Source: an uncultured SAR86 cluster bacterium
GTDB lineage: Bacteria > Pseudomonadota > Gammaproteobacteria > Magnimaribacterales > D2472
DNA length: 64,000 nt
Reading direction: 5' to 3'
Assembly: GCA_902558095.1 (NCBI GenBank)
Contig: CACECP010000001.1
Location: forward strand, 90,050-154,049
Shown: in pieces, positions 15,393-40,313 of the stretch
Position numbering within the stretch: position 1 is the stretch's first letter
Layout of the letters: each line of letters begins with the position of its first letter
Translations under genes and position numbers: made by a program
The notes under the pieces: model-generated
Database searches by the model: none
Seen by the model: the letters and a program-made list of their open reading frames with translations, nothing else
Told to the model about the DNA's origin: nothing

Positions 15393-15484
15393 TGGCGGAG
15401 GGGGTGGGATTCGAACCCACGGTGCCGATGAAGGCACGACGGTTTTCAAGACCGTTACAATAAACCAGACTCTGCCACCCCTCC
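15393..15484 (-). tRNA. tRNA-Ser (anticodon UGA)
   Basis: The reverse complement reads GGAGGGGTGGCAGAGTCTGGTTTATTGTAACGGTCTTGAAAACCGTCGTGCCTTCATCGGCACCGTGGGTTCGAATCCCACCCCCTCCGCCA. It has a 7-bp acceptor stem, an ACGGU/ACCGU anticodon stem with loop CUUGAAA, a long variable arm, a GTTCGAATC T-loop and an encoded CCA. Confidence 0.95.
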
Positions 15485-18865: not shown

Positions 18866-20545
18866 TTAATAGCCTGATGCTTGGCCATCTTTTCGACTAT
18901 CTGATGCGCCTATATAGATATCATTTTTTATCATAATTGCCTGATATCCGCCAAAACCTCCTAAATCATATTGAAATTTATGACCAAATTTCTTTAGTTT
19001 TTCTACTTCTATTGAAGATATTCCTTTTTCAAGACTTAGGTATCCTCCATCAGTCATTATCTCACCTGTAGGTTGAGATGATCCAACGTGTCTAATTCTG
19101 GGTGCATCACCAGCTTCCTGTAAGTTCATTTCAAAATCAACTAAGTTCACAACTATCTGAACATGTCCTTGCGGCTGCATTGCTCCTCCCATTAAACCAA
19201 AACTTATAAAAGGCTTATCATCTTTTGTAATAAATGCAGGTATTATTGTATGAAATGGTCTTTTTCCACCAACTAAAGAGTTTTTATGATTTTTATCTAA
19301 ACTAAACATTTCACCTCTATCTTGAAGCATAAAACCAAGATTATTAGGTACCATGCCAGAGCCCATCCCTCTATAGTTACTTTGAATTAATGAAACCATA
19401 TTCCCAAATTTATCAGCAACTGTTAGGTAAATAGTGTCTCCGTCCTCTAAATTTCCTGCATTAAAACTGCTTGAAGAATTTTTGAGATCAATTAAATTTA
19501 ATCTATCCTTTGCATATTCCTTAGAAATTAATTTTGATACTGGAATATTTGAAAAGTTAGGATCAGCATAATACTTAGCCCTGTCTTCATATACTATTTT
19601 TTTAGTTTCTGTAAATAAATGAATATATTCTGCTGAACCAAAACCTAAGTTTTTAATGTCAAAGTTTTCTAAAATATTTAACATCTGAAGAGCCGCTATA
19701 CCCTGACCATTTGGAGGAAGTTCCCATACATCATAACCACGATAATTAGTTGAAACAGGATTAATCCACTCAGGCTTATACATTTTCAAATCCTCAAATG
19801 TTAAGTAACCTCCCTGCTGATTAATAAAATTTGAAATTTCTTTTGCTATATCTCCCTTATAAAAATCTTCACCATATGATTGTGCAATTTTTTTATATGT
19901 TTCTGCTAAAGATGGATTTTTAAATAAGTCTCCTTTTTTTGGGGTACTTCCGTTAGGCATCCATGTTTCTTTAAAATTTGGATAGTCTATAAAGTTAATT
20001 GAAGATAAATTTAAATAATATGCGACTACCTCAGATACAGGAAATCCGTTTTCAGCATAATTTATTGCATCATTAAAAAGAAATTTAAAATCTAGTAAAC
20101 CAAATTTTTTATGAAGTTCTGCCCAGCCACCAACAGCCCCTGGCACAGTTACTGGCAAGGGTCCATATGGGGGTATCTTATCTAAGCCCTTATTTTTAAT
20201 TTTATCTATACTTATGCTTTTAGGTGATGGACCTGAGGCATTAAGACCATATAATTTTGCATCATCTGCGCTCCACACAATTGCAAATAAATCACCTCCA
20301 ACACCACATCCAGTTGGCTCAACTAACCCAAGAACTGCATTTGCTGCAATAGCAGCATCTATAGCATTTCCACCATTTTGTAAGATTGATAATGCGGTTT
20401 GAGTGGCTAATGGATGACTTGTAGCTGCCATCCCATTTGTCGATAAAACCTCTGATCTGCTTGCGAATTCTAAACCTGTAATACGGTCATATGCATTAGA
20501 ATTAAATGCAATAAAAATTGTTATTAATATAATAGAATTTTTCAT
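18866..20545 (-). CDS. ggt: Gamma-glutamyltransferase
   Basis: Autoprocessing Thr context GDTIYLTVADKFGN and motif GLMGGAMQPQGH. Likely start is MKNSIILITIFIAFNSNA (20545), which gives a signal peptide. The track ORF extends to 20560. Confidence 0.9.
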   Translation of the reverse strand: MKNSIILITIFIAFNSNAYDRITGLEFASRSEVLSTNGMAATSHPLATQTALSILQNGGNAIDAAIAANAVLGLVEPTGCGVGGDLFAIVWSADDAKLYGLNASGPSPKSISIDKIKNKGLDKIPPYGPLPVTVPGAVGGWAELHKKFGLLDFKFLFNDAINYAENGFPVSEVVAYYLNLSSINFIDYPNFKETWMPNGSTPKKGDLFKNPSLAETYKKIAQSYGEDFYKGDIAKEISNFINQQGGYLTFEDLKMYKPEWINPVSTNYRGYDVWELPPNGQGIAALQMLNILENFDIKNLGFGSAEYIHLFTETKKIVYEDRAKYYADPNFSNIPVSKLISKEYAKDRLNLIDLKNSSSSFNAGNLEDGDTIYLTVADKFGNMVSLIQSNYRGMGSGMVPNNLGFMLQDRGEMFSLDKNHKNSLVGGKRPFHTIIPAFITKDDKPFISFGLMGGAMQPQGHVQIVVNLVDFEMNLQEAGDAPRIRHVGSSQPTGEIMTDGGYLSLEKGISSIEVEKLKKFGHKFQYDLGGFGGYQAIMIKNDIYIGASDSRKDGQASGY

Positions 20546-20552
20546 ATGTAAG

Positions 20553-21497
20553 TTAATCAATCACAACTAATGTTCCACCATTTTGTTCAGTTAACTCTCT
20601 CATTAGGGTGAGATATTTATCATTATCTTCTGGAGTTGCATAAGCCTGATTCGAACTTCTTGAAGTTAAGAAACCTAAAGCATTAATTCTTACGTATTTA
20701 GATCCATCACTTTTTGTATTTATTCTATTAATTTCAAGCAGTCTTTTATCGACATCTTTATTTTCATTGATATCATCACCAACTATAAAAATACCTACGT
20801 CATCAAATTTTTTTCCATAAAAATTTATAGATTTCTCAATAGCTGGAATTGGGTTACTTTGGGAAACGACATTTACTGTTCGTAATTTATTGACAGCGTC
20901 TATCCTATTAGCTTTGGTAGGTTTTACCCAATTACCTGCACCAATAATAGTTCTTCCAGTATCATTCATAACCATGAATCCCTCAAGGTTTGGAAATGTT
21001 GTAATAATAGTTTCAATTTCTTTAATAACACTTCGCCAAGGAGCTGCATAAAACATGCTTCCAGAATTATCTATAATAAAAATTAAATATCGACTATCTA
21101 TTCTAATTCCACTTGCTACTACTTGTTTTTCAGGTTGTTTTTGGTCTGCTTTTTTTACAATTATTTGACTTTGTTTTAGTTGAGATGTTTCTGTAAGACT
21201 TTCAGCTATATTTGTTCTTTCATTGAGGTTTTCTTTTACTTTGTCTAGTTCTTCTTGAATTGATATTAAGTTCTTCAACTTTGATGTAAGTTCATTATCG
21301 AACTCATTTAGTTCATTATTCTTCGTTACTATTTCTTCCTGTTTCGTTAGAAATAATTCAGCAGTATATTTATTTTCAATAATTTCTACTTCATTAAACT
21401 CACTTATCAATAAAATTAATACAAGCGCACCAAATCCACAAGCCATAATGTCTAAAAATGACATTGAGAAAACTTCAGTCGTTTTCTTTTCTTTCAT
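20553..21497 (-). CDS. g9: membrane protein with ExbD/TolR-like Asp TM helix + coiled coil + vWA-like domain (paralog of g8)
   Basis: N-terminal TM FSMSFLDIMACGFGALVLILLI, then a heptad-rich segment (about residues 45-115), then a vWA start LIFIIDNSGSM. I prefer ATG 21497, which forms an ATGA overlap with the g8 stop. The track ORF begins at a TTG (21506). Confidence 0.7.
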   Translation of the reverse strand: MKEKKTTEVFSMSFLDIMACGFGALVLILLISEFNEVEIIENKYTAELFLTKQEEIVTKNNELNEFDNELTSKLKNLISIQEELDKVKENLNERTNIAESLTETSQLKQSQIIVKKADQKQPEKQVVASGIRIDSRYLIFIIDNSGSMFYAAPWRSVIKEIETIITTFPNLEGFMVMNDTGRTIIGAGNWVKPTKANRIDAVNKLRTVNVVSQSNPIPAIEKSINFYGKKFDDVGIFIVGDDINENKDVDKRLLEINRINTKSDGSKYVRINALGFLTSRSSNQAYATPEDNDKYLTLMRELTEQNGGTLVVID

Positions 21498-22573
21498 GAT
21501 GGCCAATCCTTGCTTGAAGTTAAAAAGCAGCCACCAGTCTGTTTTGAAAATAAAGAATAAGTAAAGGTTGCTTTTGGATCACCTTTTAAAGGTAATAAAA
21601 TTAAATTTAGCTTTGCATTATATGTATTTCGGTCTGCATCATAAAAAATATCTTTATAAGTATCTTTAAAAGCACTAAAAAAATTTAATCTACACTCCAA
21701 ATCAATTAACTCTTCTTTAAGACATCCTTTAATTCTTCCATCTTTTAAACTTGGTGTTGATGATTTCGGTTTTATTGCCTGTGTTGGCAAACCATCGGTA
21801 ATTAAATAAATACTATCAGCATCTTTCCATTGTTCTAATTTTTTAAAAGCAAGCTGTAGATTGGTGCCGTGATCAGGCGCTTCTGTTAACAAATGAACTA
21901 AATGACCTTCAATTTCTATCTTGTTGCGTGAATCTATCCAGTCATTGGTATTTGGCTTTATTTTTAAGTCTTTATTGAAACTAGCTAATATAACTTCAGA
22001 ATCCTCAGGTAAATTATTTACCAACCATCTATAAATTTGTTTTGCTTTTTTCCATTTCTCAGTATTCTGTTTTATAAAATCTGTTTGAACGCTCAAACGA
22101 ATTATTTCAACTAGTTCTTTGTGAAGCATGCTTTCAGAAGAATCTATTAACAAAATAATTTTTTTTCCCTCGACGTTACACCCAGATATATATATTTTTT
22201 TAACAGGTTTATATTTTGTGGCAGCACTTTTCTTGAGTTGTTCCAGGACCGATGTTAGGTTTGTATTTTCATCAACTAAATTATCAATAACAGTATTTGT
22301 TATTTCTGTTTTTAATTTAGCTGAATTGATTTCTGAGCTTACGTTATCAATTGATTTTTGTACGTTAGATAATTCATTAGTTTTTGATTCTATTAAATCA
22401 TCAATGTTTTCAATTTGAGCTTCTAATGGAAGGATTTCATCTTTAAAGCTCTCGGTAAGAGGTGAATATGTAGCCTCTTTTACAAAGATAAACATTAAAG
22501 CTACCGCACCTAATCCACAAGCCATAATATCTATAAAAGATAATGAGAATGGATTTAGTTGTTTACGTTTCAA
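21494..22573 (-). CDS. g8: membrane protein with ExbD/TolR-like Asp TM helix + coiled coil + vWA domain (complete MIDAS)
   Basis: 359 aa with N-terminal TM FSLSFIDIMACGLGAVALMFIF and a heptad-rich linker. vWA motifs are ILLIDSSESM (DxSxS), GTNLQLAF (Thr) and IYLITDGLPT (Asp). TTG start lies 4 nt after the g7 stop, with no in-frame ATG before the TM helix. Confidence 0.75.
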   Translation of the reverse strand: MKRKQLNPFSLSFIDIMACGLGAVALMFIFVKEATYSPLTESFKDEILPLEAQIENIDDLIESKTNELSNVQKSIDNVSSEINSAKLKTEITNTVIDNLVDENTNLTSVLEQLKKSAATKYKPVKKIYISGCNVEGKKIILLIDSSESMLHKELVEIIRLSVQTDFIKQNTEKWKKAKQIYRWLVNNLPEDSEVILASFNKDLKIKPNTNDWIDSRNKIEIEGHLVHLLTEAPDHGTNLQLAFKKLEQWKDADSIYLITDGLPTQAIKPKSSTPSLKDGRIKGCLKEELIDLECRLNFFSAFKDTYKDIFYDADRNTYNAKLNLILLPLKGDPKATFTYSLFSKQTGGCFLTSSKDWPS

Positions 22574-22577
22574 GTAT

Positions 22578-23234
22578 TTATTTAGCTAAAAATCTTGCTC
22601 TTAGCATTACAATAAGGTTATCTTGTTTATACTCAATTCTTGTTATAAAAAACATCAACATAATGCTTAATAAAAGAGCTGTGAATGTTGAGTTAAAAGC
22701 AACACCAAGGCTTGTAGTCATACCTGTAATGTCACCGTCTATTGCTTCAGCAGCTTGAGACAACGCCTCTCCAATTCCTCTGACAGTACCTATAAATCCA
22801 ATTGATGGTATTGCCCAAGAAATATATTTGATAAATGAAAGGTCTAATTGAAATAAATCAAATTTATTTTCAATTAAAATAGAGTATATTTCTTTATTTG
22901 AAGTTTCACTGTCAATTTTTTCGCTTAGCTCTTCGAGCAATGGATCGTTATTATTTTCAAGCGATTTATAGTCATCTTGGAGTAAATAATAATTAAATGC
23001 TCCTATAATTAAGCTCCATAAAAATAATATTAAGCATATTTTTTGTTCGGGGTCTTTTAAAATAACTGAAAAGTGTCTTTCGGGAGAAATATTATTTGCC
23101 TGTGCTATTGCCATGAATTCAAATGCCATTGGATTTATAAGTGCAAGATAAAAAATATGTACAATTATTAGAGATAAAAAGAATGACAAAAAGATAAAGA
23201 TTGAATAATAAGATTTATTAAAATATTTTTTCAT
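22578..23234 (-). CDS. g7: divergent MotA/TolQ/ExbB-family proton channel
   Basis: 218 aa. The C-terminal half carries the family signature IPSIGFIGTVRGIGEAL ... GMTTSLGVAFNSTFTALLLSIMLMFF, directly comparable with ExbB at 1407..2006. Confidence 0.8.
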   Translation of the reverse strand: MKKYFNKSYYSIFIFLSFFLSLIIVHIFYLALINPMAFEFMAIAQANNISPERHFSVILKDPEQKICLILFLWSLIIGAFNYYLLQDDYKSLENNNDPLLEELSEKIDSETSNKEIYSILIENKFDLFQLDLSFIKYISWAIPSIGFIGTVRGIGEALSQAAEAIDGDITGMTTSLGVAFNSTFTALLLSIMLMFFITRIEYKQDNLIVMLRARFLAK

Positions 23235-23362
23235 TATATATCCTTGGGTAAATCAATTGAGTTGTTAATACTTAGTCTATTTTTTAAATTTAAATTATTT
23301 GATTGAGAATAAACAGTACCCGCAACAATAACTATAATAATTAAATATATTAAATACCGCAT
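23234..23362 (-). CDS. g6: unannotated 42-codon ORF, small hydrophobic/secreted peptide
   Basis: Manual translation: MRYLIYLIIIVIVAGTVYSQSNNLNLKNRLSINNSIDLPKDI. The ATG lies 2 nt after the g5 stop and the TAA overlaps the g7 ATG (TAATG). It exactly fills the only apparent gap in the operon. It is absent from the ORF track, in which no ORF is shorter than 61 aa. Confidence 0.55.
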   Translation of the reverse strand: MRYLIYLIIIVIVAGTVYSQSNNLNLKNRLSINNSIDLPKDI

Positions 23363-23364
23363 TT

Positions 23365-25257
23365 TTAGTAGATCCATCTTGCTATCCTAAATCCTATAAG
23401 TTCATTTTCTGCATTACCATATGTCCTATATGATAAACCAAGTTGAAGGGGTGTGGATGAATAATGATTAGATCCTTTTATTACGTGAGTAGTTCCAACT
23501 GTGGGGCCAATATAATCAGTAAAAATTTCAGATGGATCTATTATCTCAATTGAATAAAAGTCATTTACCCATTCTGATAAATTTCCAGTGATATCATTGA
23601 GACCATTTTGATTTGATCTAAATGATCCAACAGGTGATCTTTCTAAGTAACCATCATCATAATCAGGCACAAAATTGGCTAGAATCCCTTCTGTAGTTTG
23701 GTCTGCTATATTTCCAACTAATTTTCTAATTTGCCTATCTGATCCCCATGCATATATTAGCTCACCCTGTGTGGGGTTGTTGGATTTTGCAGCATACTCC
23801 CATTCTGCCTCTGTAGGTAATCTGTAACCATTAGATTTTGTATTGAAATATAATAACCTATCACCTTTGATAATATAAAATTGGTCCAGGCCTTCTTTAC
23901 GACTCAACCAATTGCAAAATTTTGCAGCATCAATCCAAGACACATTATTTACAGGAAGATTAGATGCACTTGTAGATTTTTTAAATTTTTTATATTGATT
24001 TTCAGTAATTAAATTTTTACTTATAAAAAAATGTTTTGTAATTTTTACCTTTTTTTGTAATTCATTAATATCTCTTCTTGACTCTCTTTTTGGAGAGCCC
24101 ATAGTAATTGATCCTGGATTCATAAGTATCAATTTTGAACCAATGGAATTAGTAGAATTATTCTTACTATCTATTAACGACGCTTGTTTATCTGTTAGTA
24201 AATTTTTATATATTTGAACTTTATCATTTAATGGTTCAAATGATTCTCTAATCGATCTATGGCCTAATGCCTCATAACTAATTTTATGTTTAATTTTTTG
24301 GATATCTTTTTTTAATGGTGTTGAGCCAATATACCTACCATTCAAAATCACCTTTGCAGGAACGTTACTGCTAAATTGAACTTCTGCCATATCTTTTTCA
24401 AGAGTTGTGCTTATCGTTTTTGTTTGATTATTAGGACTTATCAATTTATCACGATATCCATATTTCTTTATTTTGATTGTTCCTTTTTTAATATTAGGAA
24501 ATTTTATTGGGGTTATGCCAATATACTCATCATCTAAGAATACTGATGCACTTGGTGGATTTGATGATAGAGAAATTAAATTTTCATCTTCGTCAAGCAA
24601 ATAATTGATTTCAGATTTGTTGTTATCATTAACAAAATACTTAACTTTTTTTTCTTTATACCCGGCTTTTTTTAGAATTATTTCATTATTAGATCTATCT
24701 AAATTTATTGTCAATGGCGTTACGCCAAGCTCAGTATTATTTAAAAAAACTTTAGCATTATTTGGATTTGAAGATATTTGTAACGATTTATCAATTTTTT
24801 TAAGAATTACCGGAATCAATAATTCATCTGTGTATTTCTCTATTTCAAAATTTGATTTATAGGTTAAATGATTATTTGATGTTATTTCGTATGAATGAGC
24901 ACCCTTTTTTAACTTGATATTATCTAATGAATTAAGAACTTTATTGTTAAGAATAAATTTATCATAAGTATCGTTGATTTTAAAAACCACATTTATAGGT
25001 TTCTCAATAAGAATAATTTCTTTATCAGAGTCACGATGGTTGAATTCAATAGTTTTTGATTCATAGCCATATGCTTCCACATTTAGTTTAAATTTTCGAA
25101 AAAAAGAATATACAGTATCATTTATAATAATAGAATTTGGTGAACTAACCTTAAGCTCAGGATATTCTTCTTTATAGTTTATATTTGATGATTTTAAAAG
25201 AAAAAGTGGAATTGCTATTAGCAATGTCACTATAACAATAATTGTTTTTTTGTTCAT
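23365..25257 (-). CDS. g5: membrane-anchored PEGA-repeat protein with C-terminal FGE/SUMF1-like domain
   Basis: 630 aa with N-terminal TM IIVIVTLLIAIPLFLL. There are at least three PEGA units (ISSNPNNAKVFLNNTELGVTPLTINL; LSSNPPSASVFLDDEYIGITPIKF; FSSNVPAKVILNGRYIGSTPLKK). FGE-sulfatase motifs are NNVSWIDAAKFCNWLS, GYRLPTEAEWEYAAK and GFRIAR. Confidence 0.8.
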   Translation of the reverse strand: MNKKTIIVIVTLLIAIPLFLLKSSNINYKEEYPELKVSSPNSIIINDTVYSFFRKFKLNVEAYGYESKTIEFNHRDSDKEIILIEKPINVVFKINDTYDKFILNNKVLNSLDNIKLKKGAHSYEITSNNHLTYKSNFEIEKYTDELLIPVILKKIDKSLQISSNPNNAKVFLNNTELGVTPLTINLDRSNNEIILKKAGYKEKKVKYFVNDNNKSEINYLLDEDENLISLSSNPPSASVFLDDEYIGITPIKFPNIKKGTIKIKKYGYRDKLISPNNQTKTISTTLEKDMAEVQFSSNVPAKVILNGRYIGSTPLKKDIQKIKHKISYEALGHRSIRESFEPLNDKVQIYKNLLTDKQASLIDSKNNSTNSIGSKLILMNPGSITMGSPKRESRRDINELQKKVKITKHFFISKNLITENQYKKFKKSTSASNLPVNNVSWIDAAKFCNWLSRKEGLDQFYIIKGDRLLYFNTKSNGYRLPTEAEWEYAAKSNNPTQGELIYAWGSDRQIRKLVGNIADQTTEGILANFVPDYDDGYLERSPVGSFRSNQNGLNDITGNLSEWVNDFYSIEIIDPSEIFTDYIGPTVGTTHVIKGSNHYSSTPLQLGLSYRTYGNAENELIGFRIARWIY

Positions 25258-27116
25258 GCAACACAGAATCCAGCTGGAACAACCACAACATGATTTATTT
25301 TTCCAACTTGAGGCTGACCATTAATTTTAGGCACTTTAAATTTTGATTTCTTTAATGCTTTTTCAATTATTACTATCACGGCTCTATCATCAGATTTAAG
25401 ATTTTTTGATAGAGTCATTTCCTGATGTACTCTTATTGATGTAACTCTTGATGCTACTACTTTACCAGCTTTATCTACATTTAAAGTAAATGTTAGACGA
25501 AGTGGACTATTTCTGGTTGTTTTTGTACATACAATATTTTTTGAAAAAGATGAGCTTATAATTTTTGCATTTTTAATAAATTTTTCATCTAAAATGTTTT
25601 GTGCAGAATTGGTATTTTGTTGATTGTTGAATATGTTTTCTTCTTGTTCTTCTACGTTTGATAAATCGACATCATCTTTTGTAATATTTCCTGTTTCATA
25701 TATGGAACACTTGTTTGTACATATTGCCGTAATAGATAAAAACTCTTTACCAGGCTCTAAATTAATTTCTTTTCGAGTTGATTGCATACCTCTCTTTTTT
25801 GCTACTAAAACATATTTTCCTGGATAGAGTTTTATATTTTCTTCAGAAAAAGGTTCGTAGTTTCTTGTCTTTTGTATATCTACATAAGTTTCATCATTAG
25901 ATATAAGATTTAAAACTACCATCTCACCATATTTTTTAAATGTCTCGTTCGCTTGCAATATTAGATTAATTAATTTTTTTTCATCTTTGAGAATAAGATT
26001 ATTAGCAACTCCTATAACTCTCTCAAAATTATTTCTTATATTTGGTGAACTTAATCTATCGACATTTCTTAAATATTTATTTAAATCGTCATAAGTTTGT
26101 TTTATAGATGAGGTTCTATTAAATTTTCTAACTAAATCTGAATTTGTTGGGTCAAGTTTTAAGGCTTTGTTATATGCATCTAAGGCTGATTCCCAATTTT
26201 CAGCAGCATAGCTTCTGTCACCAGAATTTGTGAATAGAGTTATATCATAATTTTTCTTTTTAATATCAATTTCTCTTTTGAGTATTGGTAACTCTGAATT
26301 ATTAGGAAGAATCGATTTAGCGTCATTATATAAAGATAGGGATTTAGAAAAATCATTAGAATTTAGAGCGCTATATGCTTTTTTTAAGTTCTGATCAAAA
26401 TAATAAACTTTAGATTCATTTATAATTTTTACTTTAATTTGTTTTGCGTCAGCTCTTTCTGGATCTATTTGAATGGCCTCATCAATGGTTTGAATTGCTA
26501 GACTGTATTTTTTAGAGGAAGAATAGTCTTCTGCCGATGATATTAAATCGGTGACTATATAGTAGTTATCAATACGTTTGTTTATGTTAATTAACTTTTT
26601 GTTTGCTGGGTCAATAGACAATCCTTCTTCAACAAGCGTTTTAGCTTCGTCAAGTTTAACTAAGTCAAAAGCTAATTGTGATCTATCAATAATTTCTAAA
26701 ACTTTTAATCTATTTCTATCATTAAAGCTAATTATTAATTCAGAGGCCTCTTTATATGAATCTCTAGATTTAAAGTAAAATTCATCAAAATAAAATTTAT
26801 CACCATCTTTTTTAAGTGACTCAACCTCACTTAAAATACTTTTAGCTTCAGCCATTTCAACATTTTTGAATGATTCATATAGAGGATCTAATTTTTTTAG
26901 TTCAACTAAAGCTTCATTTCTTTCTTTACAAAGAGGTGAATTAGCCCAAACACCTGTGCAATCAAGGGATGTATTTGGGTCTACAGTAAGAATGTTTTCG
27001 TTAGAATTGGTAATAGGCTCCTCATTGCTACAACTATATAGCAATGAGAAGACAATAATACTTGTTAAACTTTTATAAAATCTCAAATTCATTGGTTTGA
27101 CTAGACTCTGATTCAT
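25254..27116 (-). CDS. g4: TPR-repeat lipoprotein with PEGA-like segment and TonB-C-like C-terminus
   Basis: 620 aa with lipobox IIVFSLLYSC (alternative start 27092, MNLRFYK...). Several TPR-like units are present (e.g. NWESALDAYNKALKLDPTNSDL). The C-terminus LRLTFTLNVDKAGKVVASRV...ALKKSKFKVPKINGQP resembles the TonB C-terminal fold pattern, which is tentative. Confidence 0.6.
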   Translation of the reverse strand: MNQSLVKPMNLRFYKSLTSIIVFSLLYSCSNEEPITNSNENILTVDPNTSLDCTGVWANSPLCKERNEALVELKKLDPLYESFKNVEMAEAKSILSEVESLKKDGDKFYFDEFYFKSRDSYKEASELIISFNDRNRLKVLEIIDRSQLAFDLVKLDEAKTLVEEGLSIDPANKKLININKRIDNYYIVTDLISSAEDYSSSKKYSLAIQTIDEAIQIDPERADAKQIKVKIINESKVYYFDQNLKKAYSALNSNDFSKSLSLYNDAKSILPNNSELPILKREIDIKKKNYDITLFTNSGDRSYAAENWESALDAYNKALKLDPTNSDLVRKFNRTSSIKQTYDDLNKYLRNVDRLSSPNIRNNFERVIGVANNLILKDEKKLINLILQANETFKKYGEMVVLNLISNDETYVDIQKTRNYEPFSEENIKLYPGKYVLVAKKRGMQSTRKEINLEPGKEFLSITAICTNKCSIYETGNITKDDVDLSNVEEQEENIFNNQQNTNSAQNILDEKFIKNAKIISSSFSKNIVCTKTTRNSPLRLTFTLNVDKAGKVVASRVTSIRVHQEMTLSKNLKSDDRAVIVIIEKALKKSKFKVPKINGQPQVGKINHVVVVPAGFCVA

Positions 27117-28257
27117 ATATATCTATGAGTATAGTTTGCCATTGATCAAATTGATTTTGAATATTACCCTCAAGTTTAACTTGAAGATCTTCCATTTCAA
27201 CAACCTTAGGAGCAATTTCTCCATCAAATGACTTTGAAACCTCATTTATTGTTGATTCATGGACTTTAGCTTCTCTAGCATCACCTACAGCAGATGCTAT
27301 CAAACCTGCACCAAGAAGTGCTGCAGTTGAAGCTCCTGCACTATAGTCATAATTGTCACTACTAGAAGATGATGATGCAGCTGCTGCAACAATAAGAGCA
27401 CCAAGAATTGCTTTTCCAGCAGCAGCTCTTTGCGCTTCTCTCTTTTGTTTTGAAGCTGTTAATGCTGCCTCTTGCCAAATCTTATAACTCTCATCCATTG
27501 TGTCTGTGAATGAAATATAATGTTTTTGCATTTCATTTTTAAATTGGGCATCTTTTAATTGAACATTTTGTGCCCTAATAAACATAGGGTCATTCATAGC
27601 AGGAACAAATCCCAATGAATATCTTCCATTTTCAACATCTAAGGACTCATCAAACTCCATCTCGTTGAGTTTTTGTGCAAATCTTAAATCTGTAACTAAT
27701 TCAATCTGTTCAAGGTCTCTTTTTTTAAGCTCTTTTATTATATCGCCAGCAATAGATCTATAGACGACATCAAATGGATCTTTACCTTTATTTCTTATAT
27801 TTTGATAGAAGTATTCGCTTGTTCTATGTTTATAAAGTTTGTTTTTTATTATCGGTTTGCCTGTCGAATCTTTTGCATTTATTAAAAGATGAACATCCTC
27901 TCCGTTGGATTCTTGAATAGTTCCTTCAATCACAATGTCTGTTAAGAATTCGGCATTGGTTGTTACTGCAACATTTGCAAAAGCATTGGTTTCGTTAAGC
28001 GATCTCATCATTTTTACTGCAAACCTTCTAGCTTCTGCTCTTCTTAACTCAGGCCATAAGCCATTTTCACGATCGACCTCATCACTTCCTGATAGGCCTG
28101 GATCAAGCTCTACTATATTAATATCTAATTTAGTTGACATTGTTGAAGCGTCTAATTCAAGCTCTTCATATGTCATAGAATTAGTTATAGGCGCTGTAGT
28201 TTCGCAGCTAATTAATATAAAAGTTAGAGCGAATAAAGTTGTAATATTTTTTAACAT
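27073..28257 (-). CDS. g3: hypothetical lipoprotein
   Basis: 394 aa with signal and lipobox LFALTFILISC. It has an internal Ala/Ser/Gly-rich hydrophobic stretch (AILGALIVAAAASSSSSS...AALLGAGLIASAVG). No recognisable domain. Confidence 0.6.
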   Translation of the reverse strand: MLKNITTLFALTFILISCETTAPITNSMTYEELELDASTMSTKLDINIVELDPGLSGSDEVDRENGLWPELRRAEARRFAVKMMRSLNETNAFANVAVTTNAEFLTDIVIEGTIQESNGEDVHLLINAKDSTGKPIIKNKLYKHRTSEYFYQNIRNKGKDPFDVVYRSIAGDIIKELKKRDLEQIELVTDLRFAQKLNEMEFDESLDVENGRYSLGFVPAMNDPMFIRAQNVQLKDAQFKNEMQKHYISFTDTMDESYKIWQEAALTASKQKREAQRAAAGKAILGALIVAAAASSSSSSDNYDYSAGASTAALLGAGLIASAVGDAREAKVHESTINEVSKSFDGEIAPKVVEMEDLQVKLEGNIQNQFDQWQTILIDIYESESSQTNEFEIL

Positions 28258-28940
28258 TTTAAATTCTCCGGTTTAAGGTTGTTATAGATAGCATATTTTC
28301 TAATAAGCTCGTTTTTTAAAATTGGGTCATTCTCTTTAGCAATGCTTTCTTTAAGCTGCGCAGAAACTTGATTGTTATCCTTTATATTTGCTATACATGC
28401 CGGTACAGCTCCATTGTCAGCCATGTTTGAGTTTGTAGAGTTATTTACATTACCTGAATTTGTATTGGCTAAATTTGTATTGGCTGAATTCATATTGCCA
28501 GAATTTAAATTACCTGAATTTTGATTTCCTAAATTTTGATTTCCTGAATTTTGATTTCCTGAATTTTGACTTCCTGAATTTATATTATTTGCAACATTAT
28601 TATTACTTCCATTATTTAATTTTGGGGTTCCAAGAGTTTTTGATGGAGTGCTTACTTTTGTTTTTTGAACATCTGATCCAGAAATAGATCCACCAGAATT
28701 AGTTTGAGCTACATTGAGATCAGCTGTTTGTGCTAGCTGTGATATACATTCTTGGTTTGCTTGTGCTAAAAGTTTTTTAAAATATAAATCTTTAGCTTTA
28801 ACAATTTCTTCATTCGTCATATTAACTTCATCTATTTCAAGTTTAATCTCTTCATCACATGTTATTTGTATAACTTCTTGAGAATTAACTGAAAAAGGAA
28901 TAATTAAAAAAACAAAAAGTAAAAGTTTAATCATCGTCAT
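28251..28940 (-). CDS. g2: secreted low-complexity protein with N/S/G pentapeptide repeats
   Basis: 229 aa with signal peptide MIKLLLFVFLIIPFSVNS. Its core is SGNQNSGNQNSGNQNLGNQNSGNLNSGNMNSANTNLANTNSGN. Confidence 0.6.
   Translation of the reverse strand: MTMIKLLLFVFLIIPFSVNSQEVIQITCDEEIKLEIDEVNMTNEEIVKAKDLYFKKLLAQANQECISQLAQTADLNVAQTNSGGSISGSDVQKTKVSTPSKTLGTPKLNNGSNNNVANNINSGSQNSGNQNSGNQNLGNQNSGNLNSGNMNSANTNLANTNSGNVNNSTNSNMADNGAVPACIANIKDNNQVSAQLKESIAKENDPILKNELIRKYAIYNNLKPENLKC
28450..28584 (-). repeat. About 9 tandem 15-bp units (pentapeptide-coding microsatellite-like array) inside g2
   Basis: Plus-strand units include ttacctgaatttgta, ttggctaaatttgta, ttggctgaattcata, ttgccagaatttaaa, ttacctgaattttga, tttcctaaattttga, tttcctgaattttga (x2) and cttcctgaatttata. 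Confidence 0.85.
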
Positions 28941-29688
28941 TTTTAATAGCGGGCGGTATTCTTCTTAAATTAATTTCCACCTTAAATATCATTAAATAAA
29001 GAACAGCTGCAGCATACAAAGCAAGTCCATATAGAACATATTGCAAATTTGCATATCCTCTGGCGTTTTTAAAGGCAGATTCACTAATATTGGATTGAAT
29101 ATTATCTTGTCTTGCGGATATATTGTCCTGAAAATCATCAATGTACATTTCTAGAGCATCTCCAACTAAATCAAGTCTGTCATCAAAATTTCCAACCCTT
29201 TTAAAATCATTTATATTTTTAATATCATCAAAAAAATCTATTAATCCAGAAACTAAATCATCGTAATCGTCTCCCATATAACTGTAATTACTTTTAAAGA
29301 ATGCTTCTAAAGTTCTTGGTGTTATATTTTGATATAACCTATTAAGGTTTGCTTGTGAATCATCAAATTGTTTTGATATAGCAGTTCTTAAGTCTACAAA
29401 CCTTTTGTCTACTGGATTTTGATTATTTGATGGCGTCGCTGATCGAAGATTTTGAGGTGCTTTGAATTGTGTTACTGGAGCTTTAGGCTTAGGAAATAGT
29501 TTTGATTTAAAGCTTTCATCATATGTGATACTTGGCAGTCTTCCTTTAGATGTACTAGGTGAATCCCCTATTAAGGTCAAACTATATATAAGTGCGATTA
29601 AAGCACCAATCAGTGCTAAAGAACCTATCGCTATCAAAAAATATCTTGAAATAATAATTAATAGATTTTCAATCTTTTCTATCCACAT
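28927..29688 (-). CDS. g1: hypothetical membrane protein (N- and C-terminal TM helices)
   Basis: 253 aa. TM1 is YFLIAIGSLALIGALIALIYSLTLI and the C-terminal TM is LQYVLYGLALYAAAVLYLMIF. The central region is acidic (DDYDDLVSGLIDFFDD). It is the first gene of the operon. Confidence 0.55.
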   Translation of the reverse strand: MWIEKIENLLIIISRYFLIAIGSLALIGALIALIYSLTLIGDSPSTSKGRLPSITYDESFKSKLFPKPKAPVTQFKAPQNLRSATPSNNQNPVDKRFVDLRTAISKQFDDSQANLNRLYQNITPRTLEAFFKSNYSYMGDDYDDLVSGLIDFFDDIKNINDFKRVGNFDDRLDLVGDALEMYIDDFQDNISARQDNIQSNISESAFKNARGYANLQYVLYGLALYAAAVLYLMIFKVEINLRRIPPAIKNDDD

Positions 29689-30552: not shown

Positions 30553-32508
30553 TTAATATTTTAAATTATTTTTTAAATCATCTAAATATGGTTCATAGTT
30601 TTTCCAGTAATCCATTCCACTTGTATATATAGGTTGACGAACTTGCTCAGCACTTGGTGTTTTTACAGATCTTTTAGATTTATAGAATTCAAGACATTCT
30701 TTTTCAAAAGGAATTTCACAATATTCTAAGATATCTCTAACCGAATCCTCAAAGTTATTTACAACATCTTCGTAGTTAATTGAGAGTATTTGATTTGGTA
30801 AAACTTTATTCCAGTGATTCATTAACTCTACATAATTATTATAGTATCCAGCTAAATCTTTTAAGTCGTATGTAAATTCTTGTCCCTCAGCAAAAAGCTG
30901 TTTGAAACATGAAAAACAAGCAGACATTGATGATCTTCTAATATCAATTATTTTTGCATTAGGTAGAATAAGTTTTATTAAACCGATGTGTCTGAAGTTA
31001 TTCGGCATTTTGTCTATAAAATAAGGTTTATCTGATCTAAAGACCTCACTATCCTTTATATATTTATCTCCTATTAATTTTAATTGAGGCGAAGATAAGC
31101 TTAATAATATATCTGGGTATCTTGATTTTTTATCTTGTGACTTTCTTTCGTTTAATCTTAATGCAGTCGAAATAATGTTTGGTAGTTCATGGGTAGGTTC
31201 AACTAGTGAATGAGAAGATAGAATTTGTTCAATGAGGGTTGATCCAACACGAGGCAAGCCTAAAATAAATATAGGAGCCTTTGATTCACTACCCCATTTA
31301 GACTTCATTTCAAATAAATCGTCAGTACATACATCTATCTGGTTTGTACATTCTTTTTCAAAATCATTGACGTTAAATAAAGCTTTGCTTTTTTTAATTA
31401 AATTTCCTTCCTTGTAATGATTAAATGATTTTTCATACTCATTAAGGTCTTCATATGCTTTTCCTAGAGCAAAGTGCATGAAAGTTTTTTCATCTACTGA
31501 AACATATGGATCATTAACCATTTTGTCTATAGAGATCACCTCAGATTCAGAAAAAGTGTATGTTTTAAGATTGGCCAAACTCCAATATGAATCGCCAAAG
31601 TATTTATCAGTTTTATAAGCCGTTTGATAACAGTTAATTGATTTATCTATTTCACCTGAAGTTTTATAAAGGTGTCCCATAGATAACATCACATCCGTAT
31701 TTTTGGGTTCTAGTTTTAAAATATCATTGTAAATATCTATTGCTTCTTGGTATCTATCTGTTCTAAATAAGGCTGTTGATAATAGCTTCATTGCATTTAT
31801 ATTTTTTTTATCTTCATTATAAAAATCTTGAGCATGTTTTAATGCTTCGCCATACTTTTGTCTTTTAGTAAGTATGTTTATATAGTCATATTTAATTTTT
31901 GCATTTTCTGGATCAAATAAAAGCGCGCTTTCCAAAAGAAACTCTGCATCTTCATATATATTCAAATCTCTTCCGATATTAGCAAGCAATCTCATTGCTT
32001 CAATGTCATGAGGGTGATCTCTTAAATATTCTCTACAAATCCTATCTGCTCTTGATAGTTTTCCTTCATGTGTAAAACTAATTACTGTTTTTAATTCAGG
32101 TGGCAAGTCTTTTAGATATATTACATTTTGTTCTACAAATTTTATTAATTCTTCATTTTTGGTTTCTAATGCAAGTATGCCCAACCATGATGATTGAAGT
32201 GATGGATTATGTCTAACAGCTCTCAAGTATGCTTTAAGAGCTTTATTTTTGTTTTTAAGTAAAATATTTGTGTGTCCTATTTCTTGATAGGCTCTTCCAT
32301 AATTTGGATCAACTTGAATCAATTTATCTAAATTAATTAAAGCCTTTTTAGGTTCATTAAGGTATCTATAGCATACTGATGTTAAATAATAAAAATCTTT
32401 TTCTATTAATTGTTTAGAATTTTTTTTACATAAAGATAGCGCGTTTTTAAAATCTTTATTCTTAATAGAATTTTCAATAACTTTTTTAATTTCAGTTCTT
32501 TCGTTCAT
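30553..32508 (-). CDS. TPR-repeat sulfotransferase (copy 1)
   Basis: 651 aa with no signal peptide. The N-terminal half is TPR units. The C-terminal half has PAPS-binding-like motifs ILGLPRVGSTLIEQILSSHS (5'-PSB) and IIDIRRSSMSACFSCFKQ (3'-PB). Paralog of 38662..40254. Confidence 0.8.
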   Translation of the reverse strand: MNERTEIKKVIENSIKNKDFKNALSLCKKNSKQLIEKDFYYLTSVCYRYLNEPKKALINLDKLIQVDPNYGRAYQEIGHTNILLKNKNKALKAYLRAVRHNPSLQSSWLGILALETKNEELIKFVEQNVIYLKDLPPELKTVISFTHEGKLSRADRICREYLRDHPHDIEAMRLLANIGRDLNIYEDAEFLLESALLFDPENAKIKYDYINILTKRQKYGEALKHAQDFYNEDKKNINAMKLLSTALFRTDRYQEAIDIYNDILKLEPKNTDVMLSMGHLYKTSGEIDKSINCYQTAYKTDKYFGDSYWSLANLKTYTFSESEVISIDKMVNDPYVSVDEKTFMHFALGKAYEDLNEYEKSFNHYKEGNLIKKSKALFNVNDFEKECTNQIDVCTDDLFEMKSKWGSESKAPIFILGLPRVGSTLIEQILSSHSLVEPTHELPNIISTALRLNERKSQDKKSRYPDILLSLSSPQLKLIGDKYIKDSEVFRSDKPYFIDKMPNNFRHIGLIKLILPNAKIIDIRRSSMSACFSCFKQLFAEGQEFTYDLKDLAGYYNNYVELMNHWNKVLPNQILSINYEDVVNNFEDSVRDILEYCEIPFEKECLEFYKSKRSVKTPSAEQVRQPIYTSGMDYWKNYEPYLDDLKNNLKY

Positions 32509-32531
32509 AGAGTAATTTTAATACAGTTATA

Positions 32532-32563
32532 TAAAAAAAAGGCCAGTAAAAAACTGGCCTTTT
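32532..32563 (-). terminator. Rho-independent terminator after TBDR-1
   Basis: Palindrome ggccagt-aaaaa-actggcc extended by A/T pairs. On the minus strand it is followed by a run of about 9 U. It lies about 23 nt upstream of the sulfotransferase start. Confidence 0.8.
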
Positions 32564-32579
32564 AAAATACTATATCAGA

Positions 32580-35009
32580 TTAGAATTTATAAGATATTCT
32601 TACACCAATATTTCTAGGTCTATTAGTTGTAATTCTAGGAATATCATCCTGATCGTTATAATAGAAGTTTGCTCTTTCATCAGTAATATTTCTGATAAAG
32701 AACTCAACATCAGTTCCATTAATGCTTACGCCATATGCAGCATCCCATATTGTGTATGATGGTTGCTCTAAGCGTTTAGCTGCTTCAAGTGAGCTATAAG
32801 CTTTATCAGAACTCTTCACAGCAATTTGTGTATAAGCAGGATTACCACCTAGTTCTGAGTCAACCTTAACTCTAATGTTGTACTGAAGTTTTGGTGATAA
32901 TGGCATAGAACTTCCAACATTTGAAATTTGGATAATTCTAGACTTATCAGCAGTAACTTCTGTGTCATTATAAGAAACAGCACTAGCAACAGTTACATTG
33001 TCACTTGGATACCAAAGAATATCAGCTTCCATACCTTTAATCTCGGCATCAGCTGCATTTTCTATGAATGTTAATAATCCAACATTAACTGGATCAAACT
33101 GTGATACTTGAACATCTGTCCAATCCACCATGTAATATGATGCATTAAGTCTTAATGTTCCATCTAGCATTACAGTTTTAACACCTACCTCAGTATTGGT
33201 AGTATCATCAGTTCCGTATGTAATTAACACATTAGGTAAAGCTGAATTCCTTGATGCAAGACCTCCACCTCTATTAAATCCACCAGGTCTGTAACCTTCT
33301 GATCTTGTGAAATACCACATTGTGTCATCATCAACTGTATATTTAGCTGAAAGTTTTGTAATAGTATCATTCATGTTTAATGGTTCAGCACTATGATCAC
33401 CAGACACGTCGTAGTCTCTACCATTTGAAACATTTGAACCTCTATAACCAAACTTTGATTGACCTGTATAGTCAACATCTAAATCATACTTTCTAGCACC
33501 AACAATAAGATCTAACTTATCGCTAACTGGGAAAGTCACTTCAGCAAAGTATGCTGTTTGCTCTTCAGTTCTCTTAAGATCATTAAAGAATCTACAAGCT
33601 GGTCTTCTAACTCTACCTTCTCTTGACCATGCTCCAGGTAATGGATTATTAACCTGGTAAGCAGCCCATGTTCCAGCAGATGCAAACGGATGATCAGTAC
33701 CTAAGTAACAGTAATCATTTTCTGTTTCTAAAATACTTTCATCAATGAATACACCAGCAGTATATGAGAAAGGTAAGTCACTTTCTTCATTGCTTGATAC
33801 TCTAAATTCATGAGTTGTTCTTTGATTATCATCTAATAACTCTACAGATACTGTAGCAGGTCCGCATAAGTTATAAGCTGTATAGTTACAAACATAATAA
33901 GGCAACCATGCACCAACATTTGCATAACCACTATAGTCAACTTGTTGTTCAGATTCTCTCTCTAGATATGCTCCAGTATATAAAGCATCTAGCTTACCCA
34001 TTCTTCCTTCTAATGTAAGTGATGTTTGAGTAAATGAATCATCTAGTGTATCTGGTACAAATCTACTTACGTTAAGATCACCTTTTTCTGGATCGTAGTC
34101 AAAAACACCATCAGCACTAATATCTTGGCTCATGTGTGTGATTAACATTTCCCAATCTTCACCAATTGAAGATGCAGATGAAAGTCTAAAACCTTCATAT
34201 GTAGCATCATTAAAATTATCTTCAACTAAAGTTGAGTTAGTTTCAGTAACAAAAGTAGCCGCACCAGCTGCAGGGAAACTTCCTCTACCAGCACCTGACC
34301 ATGTTCCTGGAACGTTATCTATATAACCACCTTGTTGTGATTTATAGAAAACACCTCTTATAGACCAAACATCATTAATTAGGGGTACGTTTAAAAATGC
34401 GTCATATGAATAACTAGGATCACCATGTGCAGTTGCATAGTGAGACATATTAAATCCACCTTCTCTTTCATTATATTTTGGTTTATTAGTAATCATCCGA
34501 ACAGTACCAGCTTGAGAGCTAGCGCCATACAATGTTCCTTGTGGTCCAGGCAATACTTCAATTCTCTCCATATCAGCAACATACACATCTAAATTCCTTC
34601 CAGGAACTTGAAGTGGCTGTTCATCTAAGTAAAGCGCTACGTTTGGAGTAGATCCTTGAGCAGCAGAAAGGAAGACGTTTACCGGATCAACTGCCATACC
34701 TCTAATATAGATAGTTGATTGACCAGGCCCTCTACCACCTGATGAAACATTAGGTAAGAATTGAACGTACTCATCAAAGTTTGATACATTCATTTCTTTT
34801 AATGTTTCTTCTGTCAAAGCTGTTACTGTTACAGCAACCTTAGAAGCACTTTCATCCTTCTTTGTTGCAGAAACAACAACTTCTTCAATTTGTCTTTCTT
34901 GTGATTCAGCAGTTTGAGGAACTATTGCAGCAACAGTACCTAAAACACCCAAAGAAAGCTTATTTTTTATTTTATTTAATTGTTCTTTTGTATTAATAAA
35001 ATTAAACAT
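32580..35009 (-). CDS. TonB-dependent receptor (TBDR-1)
   Basis: The plug region has EEVVVSATKK and LPGPQGTLYGASSQAGTVRMI. A long beta-barrel ends in NIGVRISYKF. I prefer ATG 35009 (MFNFINTK...), which is preceded by GAGGA. The track ORF starts at 35021. Confidence 0.9.
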   Translation of the reverse strand: MFNFINTKEQLNKIKNKLSLGVLGTVAAIVPQTAESQERQIEEVVVSATKKDESASKVAVTVTALTEETLKEMNVSNFDEYVQFLPNVSSGGRGPGQSTIYIRGMAVDPVNVFLSAAQGSTPNVALYLDEQPLQVPGRNLDVYVADMERIEVLPGPQGTLYGASSQAGTVRMITNKPKYNEREGGFNMSHYATAHGDPSYSYDAFLNVPLINDVWSIRGVFYKSQQGGYIDNVPGTWSGAGRGSFPAAGAATFVTETNSTLVEDNFNDATYEGFRLSSASSIGEDWEMLITHMSQDISADGVFDYDPEKGDLNVSRFVPDTLDDSFTQTSLTLEGRMGKLDALYTGAYLERESEQQVDYSGYANVGAWLPYYVCNYTAYNLCGPATVSVELLDDNQRTTHEFRVSSNEESDLPFSYTAGVFIDESILETENDYCYLGTDHPFASAGTWAAYQVNNPLPGAWSREGRVRRPACRFFNDLKRTEEQTAYFAEVTFPVSDKLDLIVGARKYDLDVDYTGQSKFGYRGSNVSNGRDYDVSGDHSAEPLNMNDTITKLSAKYTVDDDTMWYFTRSEGYRPGGFNRGGGLASRNSALPNVLITYGTDDTTNTEVGVKTVMLDGTLRLNASYYMVDWTDVQVSQFDPVNVGLLTFIENAADAEIKGMEADILWYPSDNVTVASAVSYNDTEVTADKSRIIQISNVGSSMPLSPKLQYNIRVKVDSELGGNPAYTQIAVKSSDKAYSSLEAAKRLEQPSYTIWDAAYGVSINGTDVEFFIRNITDERANFYYNDQDDIPRITTNRPRNIGVRISYKF

Positions 35010-35050
35010 ATGAATCCTCATAGTTAGTTAATATAAATTGCAAAATAAAC

Positions 35051-40254: not shown

Positions 40255-40263
40255 TTATTTAAA

Positions 40264-40294
40264 TAAAAAAGGCTGTATTTGAATACAGCCTTTT
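40264..40294 (-). terminator. Rho-independent terminator after TBDR-2
   Basis: An 8-bp stem ggctgtat/atacagcc with a 4-nt loop. On the minus strand it is followed by UUUUUUAUUU. It ends about 9 nt upstream of the sulfotransferase-2 start codon. Confidence 0.8.
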
Positions 40295-40313
40295 CATTAA
40301 TTTATAAAAACTA

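Follow-up and report, generated by a model that had tools for sequence, protein, structure and literature searches.

Ion-driven motors of the 5:2 type drive flagella, nutrient uptake, maintenance of the outer membrane, gliding and type 9 secretion, and a phage defence. We analyzed three adjacent genes, g7, g8 and g9, within a 64,000-nucleotide stretch of DNA from an uncultured SAR86 cluster bacterium (assembly GCA_902558095.1, contig CACECP010000001.1, positions 90,050 to 154,049; the whole stretch is hereafter called the window), which encode a MotA/TolQ/ExbB-family protein and two proteins that join a transmembrane (TM) helix with a conserved Asp to a heptad-patterned helix and a vWA domain. 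The closest described systems are the "TPH-vWA" proteins, which are encoded beside tolQ-like genes, mostly as heterologous pairs, and whose trans-pore helix resembles that of TolR/ExbD, with its Asp conserved and the SHLS motif lacking (Mol Biol Evol 2025;42:msaf138; PMC12204202). They are reported from Proteobacteria and Verrucomicrobia, with Idiomarina loihiensis as the seed, and an AlphaFold 3 (AF3) 5:2 model made for the Idiomarina cluster places their helices within a TolQ-like pentamer that bears a Thr ring; the first vWA family of the same paper was proposed to act as a transducer on the outside of the ring (PMC12204202).

The SAR86 locus has the same arrangement. Its tolQ-like gene lies 4 nt from the first of two different genes for TM-tethered vWA proteins, with no tolR, exbD or motB gene, and the two products are a heterologous pair in which each member has a conserved-Asp helix without an SHLS motif or His and a C-terminal vWA fold; nothing contradicts membership of g8 and g9 in the TPH-vWA family. 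Orthologs of g9 are found in Idiomarina and Aliidiomarina, and Idiomarina sp. A28L, a congener of the published seed I. loihiensis, has the same operon, B-C-D-E-g7-g8-g9, as the window. A first-pass annotation of this DNA had known of no described stator family with this architecture, a statement overtaken by the 2025 paper, which describes and models the arrangement but does not characterize it experimentally. That paper makes no mention of coiled coils, of metal-ion-dependent adhesion sites (MIDAS), of the B-C-D-E genes (PEGA/sulfatase-like neighbours) or of a small peptide, X, that we describe below, and a literature search for PEGA or sulfatase-modifying factor/formylglycine together with ExbB, TolQ, MotA or vWA found nothing beyond it. 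We regard g7-g8-g9 as a new member of a computationally described family; new here are a Thr-to-Ser variant of the MIDAS, a covarying heptad stalk, an eight-gene core that includes X, kinase and FHA add-ons in one clade, and a recurrent mis-annotation of the g8 start. In our judgement the three proteins probably form a proton-driven 5:2 motor in the inner membrane, comparable to MotAB, ExbBD and TolQR, with g8 and g9 as its B-subunit.

g7 and the Asp-bearing helices of g8 and g9

The three genes and their parts are listed here; g9 residues are numbered as in the 317-aa open reading frame (ORF) that begins at TTG (20553-21506). AF2 denotes AlphaFold2 and pLDDT its predicted local distance difference test score.

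22578..23234, minus strand: g7, MotA/TolQ/ExbB family (Pfam MotA_ExbB, 3.8e-12), the presumed pentameric A-subunit
21494..22573, minus strand: g8, 359 aa from a TTG start; TM helix with Asp15, coiled coil, vWA domain with canonical MIDAS
22472..22549, minus strand: trans-pore helix of g8, residues 9-34 (AF2 helix 14-34), with Asp15 at 22529-22531
22214..22444, minus strand: stalk helix of g8, residues 44-120, a single helix in AF2 at pLDDT 85-93
21497..22165, minus strand: vWA domain of g8, residues 137-359 (VWA_2, 7e-6), pLDDT > 95
D144, S146 and S148 at 22130-22144, T237 at 21863-21865, D260 at 21794-21796, minus strand: MIDAS of g8
20553..21497, minus strand: g9, 314 aa from ATG 21497; TM helix with Asp19, coiled coil, vWA domain with Thr-to-Ser MIDAS variant
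21396..21470, minus strand: trans-pore helix of g9, residues 13-37 (AF2 helix 15-37), with Asp19 at 21450-21452
21153..21362, minus strand: stalk helix of g9, residues 49-118, a helix in AF2
20556..21119, minus strand: vWA domain of g9, residues 130-317; Foldseek top match the BatB vWA domain 3ibs, E 7e-7
D146, S148 and S150 at 21057-21071, S217 at 20856-20858, D244 at 20775-20777, minus strand: corresponding site residues of g9

Conservation was followed across 82 loci, namely 80 from species-representative genomes, one from Pseudoalteromonas xiamenensis and the window itself. The species-representative loci are, among the matches listed, relatives of ≤32% identity, and the neighbourhood counts come from profiles seeded with the window proteins and searched iteratively against every ORF at the 82 loci. 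At every one of these loci a single g8-type gene is followed by a single g9-type gene, and g7 adjoins the pair in each of the 77 loci whose sequence extends far enough. Pfam and NCBIfam searches with the nine operon proteins gave no match to ExbD, TolR, MotB or OmpA-like families. The proposal in the first-pass annotation that the vWA proteins serve as the Asp-bearing B-subunit of g7 is supported, as the most likely reading, by the invariant Asp described below, the adjacency of g7, the lack of an ExbD, TolR or MotB gene and the strict pairing of the two genes.

A search of the PDB with the single g7 sequence returned nothing relevant, and a 21-sequence profile reached TolQ and MotA at E 0.15-0.34, so the family membership of g7 rests on Pfam; a member of its identical-protein cluster is named at NCBI "MotA/TolQ/ExbB proton channel family protein." The protein has four TM segments (12-30, 66-84, ~137-157 and 179-200), one more at the N-terminal side than TolQ. 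Across 21 orthologs the motifs P-S-[IVL]-G-F-[IVL]-G-T-V-R-G-I-G and G-V-A-F-N-S-T are invariant or nearly so, and the invariant T150 and T183 align with T145 and T178 of TolQ (8odt_A) in the weak profile match at E 0.15. The window protein lacks ~40 residues of the cytoplasmic loop. We note also that residues 61-67, just ahead of the second TM segment, hold an invariant D61-x-E63-Q64-x-x-C67 without an alignable counterpart in TolQ, which would lie at the periplasmic mouth if the N-terminus of g7 is inside.

The two B-type proteins are full-length paralogs made of the same four parts: a basic N-terminus, an Asp-bearing TM helix, a heptad helix and a vWA domain. BLASTP pairs their first 150 residues at E 3e-14, and profile-profile alignment (hhalign) joins them over 302 columns with 99.85% probability, E 1.4e-30 and 17% identity; the duplication is old, since the two are homologous over their full length yet just 17% identical. 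Their AF2 monomer models have mean pLDDT values of 86 (g8) and 79 (g9). Among 1.84 billion cluster representatives, a g8 profile matched 496 at E < 1e-30; almost all of these measure 330-370 aa and align over their whole length, so the g8-type architecture is uniform. The g8 protein begins MKRKQLNPFSLSFIDIMACGLGAVALMFIF and carries the motifs IDSSESM, GTN and ITDG, and g9 contains EVFSMSFLDIMACGFGALVLILLI with the motifs DNSGS, SQSNPIPAIEKSI and VGDD. These sequence statements of the first-pass annotation, together with the Asp helix, the heptad-rich stretch and the vWA domain, were all checked and hold.

The same is true of its claim that g8 must start at TTG 22573. This codon is the sole ATG, GTG or TTG between the upstream in-frame TAG (22586-22588) and the helix, and the following ATG is Met17, already within the helix. 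Distant g8 homologs (26-34% identity) align from residue 1-5, and because they cover residues 1-16 the TTG start is needed and the N-terminal peptide is real. Gene callers annotate close homologs from the internal ATG (343-347 aa; P0001-P0053 and L082-L084), which strips off the invariant Asp and the basic N-terminus, and this recurrent error hides the family from domain-architecture searches of protein databases. The ATG of g9 at 21497 overlaps the g8 stop codon as ATGA, giving the recorded product of 314 aa. The 4-nt gap between g7 and g8, together with the overlaps of g8 with g9 and of X with g7, suggests coupled translation.

The TM Asp is present in 76/76 g8-type and 81/81 g9-type sequences, which speaks against a chance occurrence, and it is embedded in both paralogs in the almost invariant motif S-F-[LI]-D-[IV]-x-x-C-G-[FL]-G-A. 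In the g8 helix M17, C19, G20 and G22 are conserved in 82/82, and in that of g9 F17, L18, D19, C23, F25 and A27 in 81/81. The segment ahead of the helix is strongly basic (consensus MxRRKRxxxF) and the segment after it is not; given this basic segment, the N-terminus would by the positive-inside rule be cytoplasmic and the vWA heads periplasmic. The charge pattern thus favors a periplasmic over a cytoplasmic location for both vWA domains, as the stator reading of the first-pass annotation supposed. The helix has in common with Escherichia coli ExbD a short stretch, F-I-D-[IV]-M (PFIDVM, 6tyi_Y), and where the Asp is placed. The earlier label "ExbD/TolR-type" therefore stands for the functional analogy and this short motif, but homology is not demonstrable with a helix profile, and the label is best read as a statement on how the helix probably works.

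Both paralogs have an invariant Cys four positions past the Asp, Cys19 in g8 (22517-22519; 82/82) and Cys23 in g9 (21438-21440; 81/81). This spacing puts the Cys on the same helix face as the Asp, and the ExbD helix (PFIDVMLVLLIIFMV) has no Cys at that position.

TonB and TolA likewise combine a TM helix with an extended linker and a globular domain at the C-terminus, and g8 and g9 could on that plan be force transducers on the outside of the g7 ring. Sequence inspection of both helices found no His and no SHLS motif; they carry Asp, the linker is a heptad helix and not Pro-rich or disordered, and no separate B-subunit is present to fill the pore, which makes a TonB/TolA-like role highly improbable.

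vWA heads, stalks and the proposed motor

Foldseek matches both C-terminal domains to solved vWA structures at E ~1e-6 (CLCA1, ITIH1, BatB, integrin I and anthrax-receptor domains). With Pfam VWA_2 the g8 domain scores 7e-6 and that of g9 falls below threshold, and the g9 orthologue of Pseudoalteromonas xiamenensis passes at 28.8 bits. All five coordinating residues of the g8 MIDAS are present and conserved in 82 sequences, D144, S146, S148 and D260 being invariant and T237 being Thr in 77 and Ser in 5, so that the site is complete, as first described.

For g9 the first reading was right that the motifs are not textbook (VGDD, no Thr), but all five site positions are kept. D146, S148, G149, S150, M151, S217, P219, G243 and D244 are invariant in 81 locus-derived sequences, and an independent alignment of 85 sequences likewise shows no variation at D146, S148, S150, S217, P219, G243 and D244. 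Profile alignment sets S217 against T237 of g8 and D244 against D260, and in the AF2 model S217 sits in the loop preceding helix 220-231 and D244 directly past strand 237-243. In integrin I domains such places are canonical for the MIDAS Thr and Asp. The g9 site, as its conservation indicates, is a Thr-to-Ser MIDAS variant and not a decayed one, and metal binding there is plausible. The asymmetry between the two heads is real, with extra helices and an invariant E-G-D-P...D-W-P C-terminus in g8 vs g9. The proposed division into one ligand-binding and one structural head is not supported: the five site residues of g9 are invariant and align with the g8 MIDAS.

The vWA fold also invites comparison with BatA and BatB. 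The BatB vWA domain (3ibs) is the top or near-top Foldseek match and among the best solved structural neighbours, both sets of proteins are membrane-tethered, and both have a TPR neighbour, TPR proteins being present in Bat-type operons too. On this comparison g8 and g9 would be anchored periplasmic vWA proteins, the helix a mere anchor and the B-subunit of g7 encoded elsewhere. In contrast to BatA/BatB, g8 and g9 have a helix with an invariant Asp, a coiled-coil stalk and an obligatory MotA/ExbB neighbour. A mere anchor would not be expected to keep F-[LI]-D-[IV]-x-x-C-G-[FL]-G-A across phyla in such divergent paralogs, g7 is always adjacent where enough sequence is available and no ExbD/TolR gene accompanies it, and the cluster has no MoxR ATPase (neither the operon of the window nor the loci of P. 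xiamenensis and Idiomarina contain an AAA/MoxR domain). A Bat-like role is accordingly quite improbable.

Between helix and head, the stretch reported earlier as rich in heptad-spaced hydrophobics is confirmed by a shuffle test of the a/d pattern, equalled in 0/2000 shuffles for g8 and with p = 0.0055 for g9, and by AF2, which predicts long helices of 70-77 residues. A g8 profile matched solved coiled-coil proteins in the PDB, and no close solved relative was found among PDB sequences. If straight, the predicted helices would span ~11 nm (g8) and ~10 nm (g9) at 0.15 nm/residue. Measured from TM Asp to MIDAS Asp, the window stalks are the shortest of all, with 129 (g8) and 127 (g9) residues. 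This distance covaries between the partners (r = 0.93 over 75 loci; rho = 0.85 over 31 distinct pairs), with rho = 0.83 (p = 3e-4) in the long-stalk clade and rho = 0.19 in the short-stalk clade.

These observations bear on which chains share a stalk. In the solved ExbBD, TolQR and MotAB complexes, described as 5:2 motors, the axle is a dimer built from a single kind of B-subunit, and by that precedent g8 and g9 could homodimerize separately, giving two motor species on g7 rings that carry distinct heads and may act on distinct targets. The length difference between the two stalks ranges from -2 to +14 residues and does not follow whole-heptad steps, and no length covariation is seen inside the short clade, both of which fit separate homodimers. 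Set against this, co-occurrence and gene order are strict in 82/82 loci, the ATGA overlap favors equimolar synthesis, the lengths covary overall and inside the long clade, and the published AF3 model has one of each protein (PMC12204202). We consider separate homodimers unlikely; strict co-occurrence, the ATGA overlap and length covariation favor a g8/g9 pair without proving it, and the stalk is most likely a heterodimer.

In the motor that we infer, of 5:2 stoichiometry, g7 would form the outer ring and one N-terminal helix each from g8 and g9 would enter its pore, where the invariant Asp of each would take up and release protons against the conserved Thr residues of g7. Proton flow would drive a relative turning of ring and axle. 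On the periplasmic side g8 and g9 would continue as a parallel coiled-coil stalk of ~10-11 nm in place of an ExbD/TolR or OmpA-like domain, and the stalk would end in two different vWA heads, each keeping its metal-ion site. The heads may grip acidic residues on periplasmic or outer-envelope partners, for which the products of E, D, C, B and X are the best candidates, and the proton-motive force would in this way do pulling or turning work on the envelope.

Several points weigh against this motor. A profile of the g8/g9 helix retrieved no ExbD, TolR or MotB from the PDB or Pfam, and g7 itself reaches TolQ at no better than E 0.15. Structure prediction here covered monomers, the 5:2 stoichiometry and the pairing being proposals, and the geometry of the g9 MIDAS is judged from alignment and secondary-structure position. 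The covariation of stalk lengths is weak evidence, since it lies mostly between clades with none within the short clade, and no experiment has been reported on any member of the TPH-vWA family (PMC12204202).

The surrounding gene cluster and its small peptide

Upstream of g7 the window carries four further genes and a short ORF, as follows.

28251..28940, minus strand: B, secreted, N-rich protein with an N-terminal hydrophobic signal peptide
27073..28257, minus strand: C, lipoprotein with lipobox LISC, a conserved FDPGL and a Gly/Ala-rich hydrophobic stretch
25254..27116, minus strand: D, TPR protein (TPR_2, 1e-11)
23365..25257, minus strand: E, N-terminal membrane anchor, three PEGA domains (1.4e-23) and an FGE-sulfatase domain (2.8e-34; SUMF1/GldK-like)
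23234..23377, minus strand: X, unannotated 47-aa ORF located between E and g7; signal/TM segment, conserved C-terminal tail ...LSINNSIDLPKDI

The order B-C-D-E-g7-g8-g9 recurs in 57/82 loci, and nearly all the others are cut by contig ends; the exceptions are one locus in which E is split into two ORFs and two loci, the window included, with an extra match to the D profile (TPR) outside the cluster. Among the matches listed, hosts belong to the Gammaproteobacteria, Alphaproteobacteria, Zetaproteobacteria and Binatia, with one Desulfobacterales metagenome-assembled genome, and cultured carriers of the cluster include Pseudoalteromonas, Idiomarina and Microbulbifer. No conserved cluster genes besides B, C, D, E, X, g7, g8 and g9 were found in the 82 loci, and this fixed eight-gene core with its new small peptide is a new observation of the present analysis.

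B has profile matches in 60 loci, always as the first gene of the cluster, and belongs to no Pfam or NCBIfam family. C has orthologs in 63 loci, and a lipobox-like motif is seen in 54/63; it has no Pfam match and its profile finds no solved relative in the PDB. Most orthologs of D (67 loci) are bitopic inner-membrane proteins that cross the membrane once and have their N-terminus in the cytoplasm. E, with orthologs in 74 loci, was considered as a GldK/PorK protein and rejected, with GldK as its best NCBIfam match at 92.4 bits against a cut-off of 350 bits (TIGR03525) and a TM anchor without a lipobox. Pfam did not bear out an FHA domain suspected in the N-terminal part of long E orthologs.

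The X stop codon overlaps the g7 ATG, and an X-like ORF lies just upstream of g7 in 73/77 loci, three of the remaining four being without upstream sequence. X is annotated as a 47-aa gene in close marine relatives; it belongs to no Pfam or NCBIfam family, and a literature search for the FPVDI tail motif returned no relevant paper. Members of the family have signal-peptide-like N-termini, often with an AxA site, a variable middle and lengths from 35 to 139 aa, and they end in the pattern ...[IL]-S-[LE]-[DN]-x-x-[VA]-x-F-P-[VIT]-[DN]-I (family consensus ...ISLNSPVSFPVDI). The search pattern fixed the last five positions only, for which we roughly estimate a chance match at ~0.01 per locus. Positions outside it are conserved as well: among the 73 peptides F(-5) is found in 63, V(-7) in 52, D/N(-10) in 68, S(-12) in 58 and I(-13) in 53. 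X is a candidate ligand or regulator of the motor. Its penultimate Asp is replaced by Asn in 8/73 while the MIDAS residues are invariant, which makes this Asp unlikely as a metal ligand and would leave the terminal carboxylate or upstream acidic residues as candidates.

Some lineages add to the core. In 40 loci, which have the longer stalks, a gene for an additional cytoplasmic protein of ~440 aa (e.g., L003:8671-9987) lies between g7 and g8. This protein has no Pfam match, and the C-terminal ~70 residues of its profile match solved FHA domains (EssC 5fwh, E 1.5e-4; KIF13B; Ki-67). In some of these loci D carries an N-terminal Ser/Thr kinase domain (Pfam Pkinase; L003:3216-5516, 1.7e-12, and L020:2999-5314, 7.5e-9). 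The kinase on D and the FHA gene, taken together, hint that phosphorylation regulates the machine in such long-stalk lineages. The cluster of the window is the minimal form, with no kinase, no FHA gene, a short g7 loop and the shortest stalks.

Other features of the window adjoin the cluster or lie apart from it. A gene for a 253-aa protein with TM segments at both ends (28927-29688, minus strand) immediately precedes B; close marine relatives (L082) have a similar gene of 266 aa, which is absent from the 81 other loci, and it is possibly a lineage-specific addition to the cluster. At the opposite end, a gamma-glutamyltranspeptidase gene (18866-20560, minus strand) stands between g9 and an aminotransferase gene. 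Its listed TTG start overlaps g9 by 8 nt, and a later ATG (MKNSII...) looks likelier; in close relatives (L082-L084) the gene is absent from this place and the aminotransferase follows g9 directly. Two gene pairs on the minus strand (30553-35021 and 38662-42581) each encode a TonB-dependent receptor (Plug) followed by a TPR and sulfotransferase protein. A tRNA gene (15396-15484, minus strand) is the sole Rfam match in the window at the gathering threshold.

Relation to known envelope motors and significance

The trio resembles ExbB-ExbD and TolQ-TolR in the family of the A-subunit (MotA_ExbB) and its conserved Thr residues, and in the single TM helix of the B-subunits, which is N-in with the Asp near its cytoplasmic end. 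It differs in that g7 has four TM segments rather than three, and in that the periplasmic part of g8 and g9 is a coiled coil and a vWA domain and not the ExbD/TolR periplasmic domain (neither protein matches Pfam PF02472, ExbD/TolR); a TonB or TolA partner is also missing here. Unlike MotB and PomB, g8 and g9 end in a vWA domain, with no OmpA-like peptidoglycan-binding match.

GldLM/PorLM with GldK/PorK offers a likeness by analogy only: an ion-driven inner-membrane motor, a dimeric long periplasmic arm and a partner with the FGE-sulfatase fold. g8 and g9 have no detectable homology to GldM, and no other genes of the type 9 secretion system are present. The Zorya ZorAB system shares an A-subunit of the MotA/ExbB superfamily, and PADLOC gave weak ZorA matches for g7 (E 0.0018). 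Zorya was rejected as an identification, with PADLOC finding no ZorB, ZorC or ZorD among g8, g9 and their neighbours. The long coiled coil of Zorya belongs to ZorA and lies in the cytoplasm, whereas here it would be periplasmic and on the B-subunits.

A wider proposal, which we offer tentatively and hold to be doubtful as a whole, is that the trio is the engine of an envelope machine composed of B, C, D, E, X and g7-g9, with kinase/FHA add-ons in some lineages, that is functionally distinct from the Ton, Tol, flagellar, gliding and Zorya systems. A heterodimeric stalk would rotate, one MIDAS head would capture the ...SFPVDI tail of X through its Asp or terminal carboxylate, and the other would hold an acidic site on the PEGA/FGE-sulfatase or TPR partner. 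If this is true, the X-capturing machine would be new, a peptide-gated or peptide-coupled proton-driven force transducer.

Each new output module of a 5:2 motor has so far led to new envelope biology. The family to which g7-g8-g9 belong exchanges the usual head of the B-subunit for a coiled-coil stalk and two integrin-like, putatively metal-dependent binding domains, and it is retained even in a streamlined-looking genome of ~30% G+C. The fixed list of envelope partners, the Thr-to-Ser variant of the MIDAS and the ...FPVDI peptide provide handles on what this motor may pull on.

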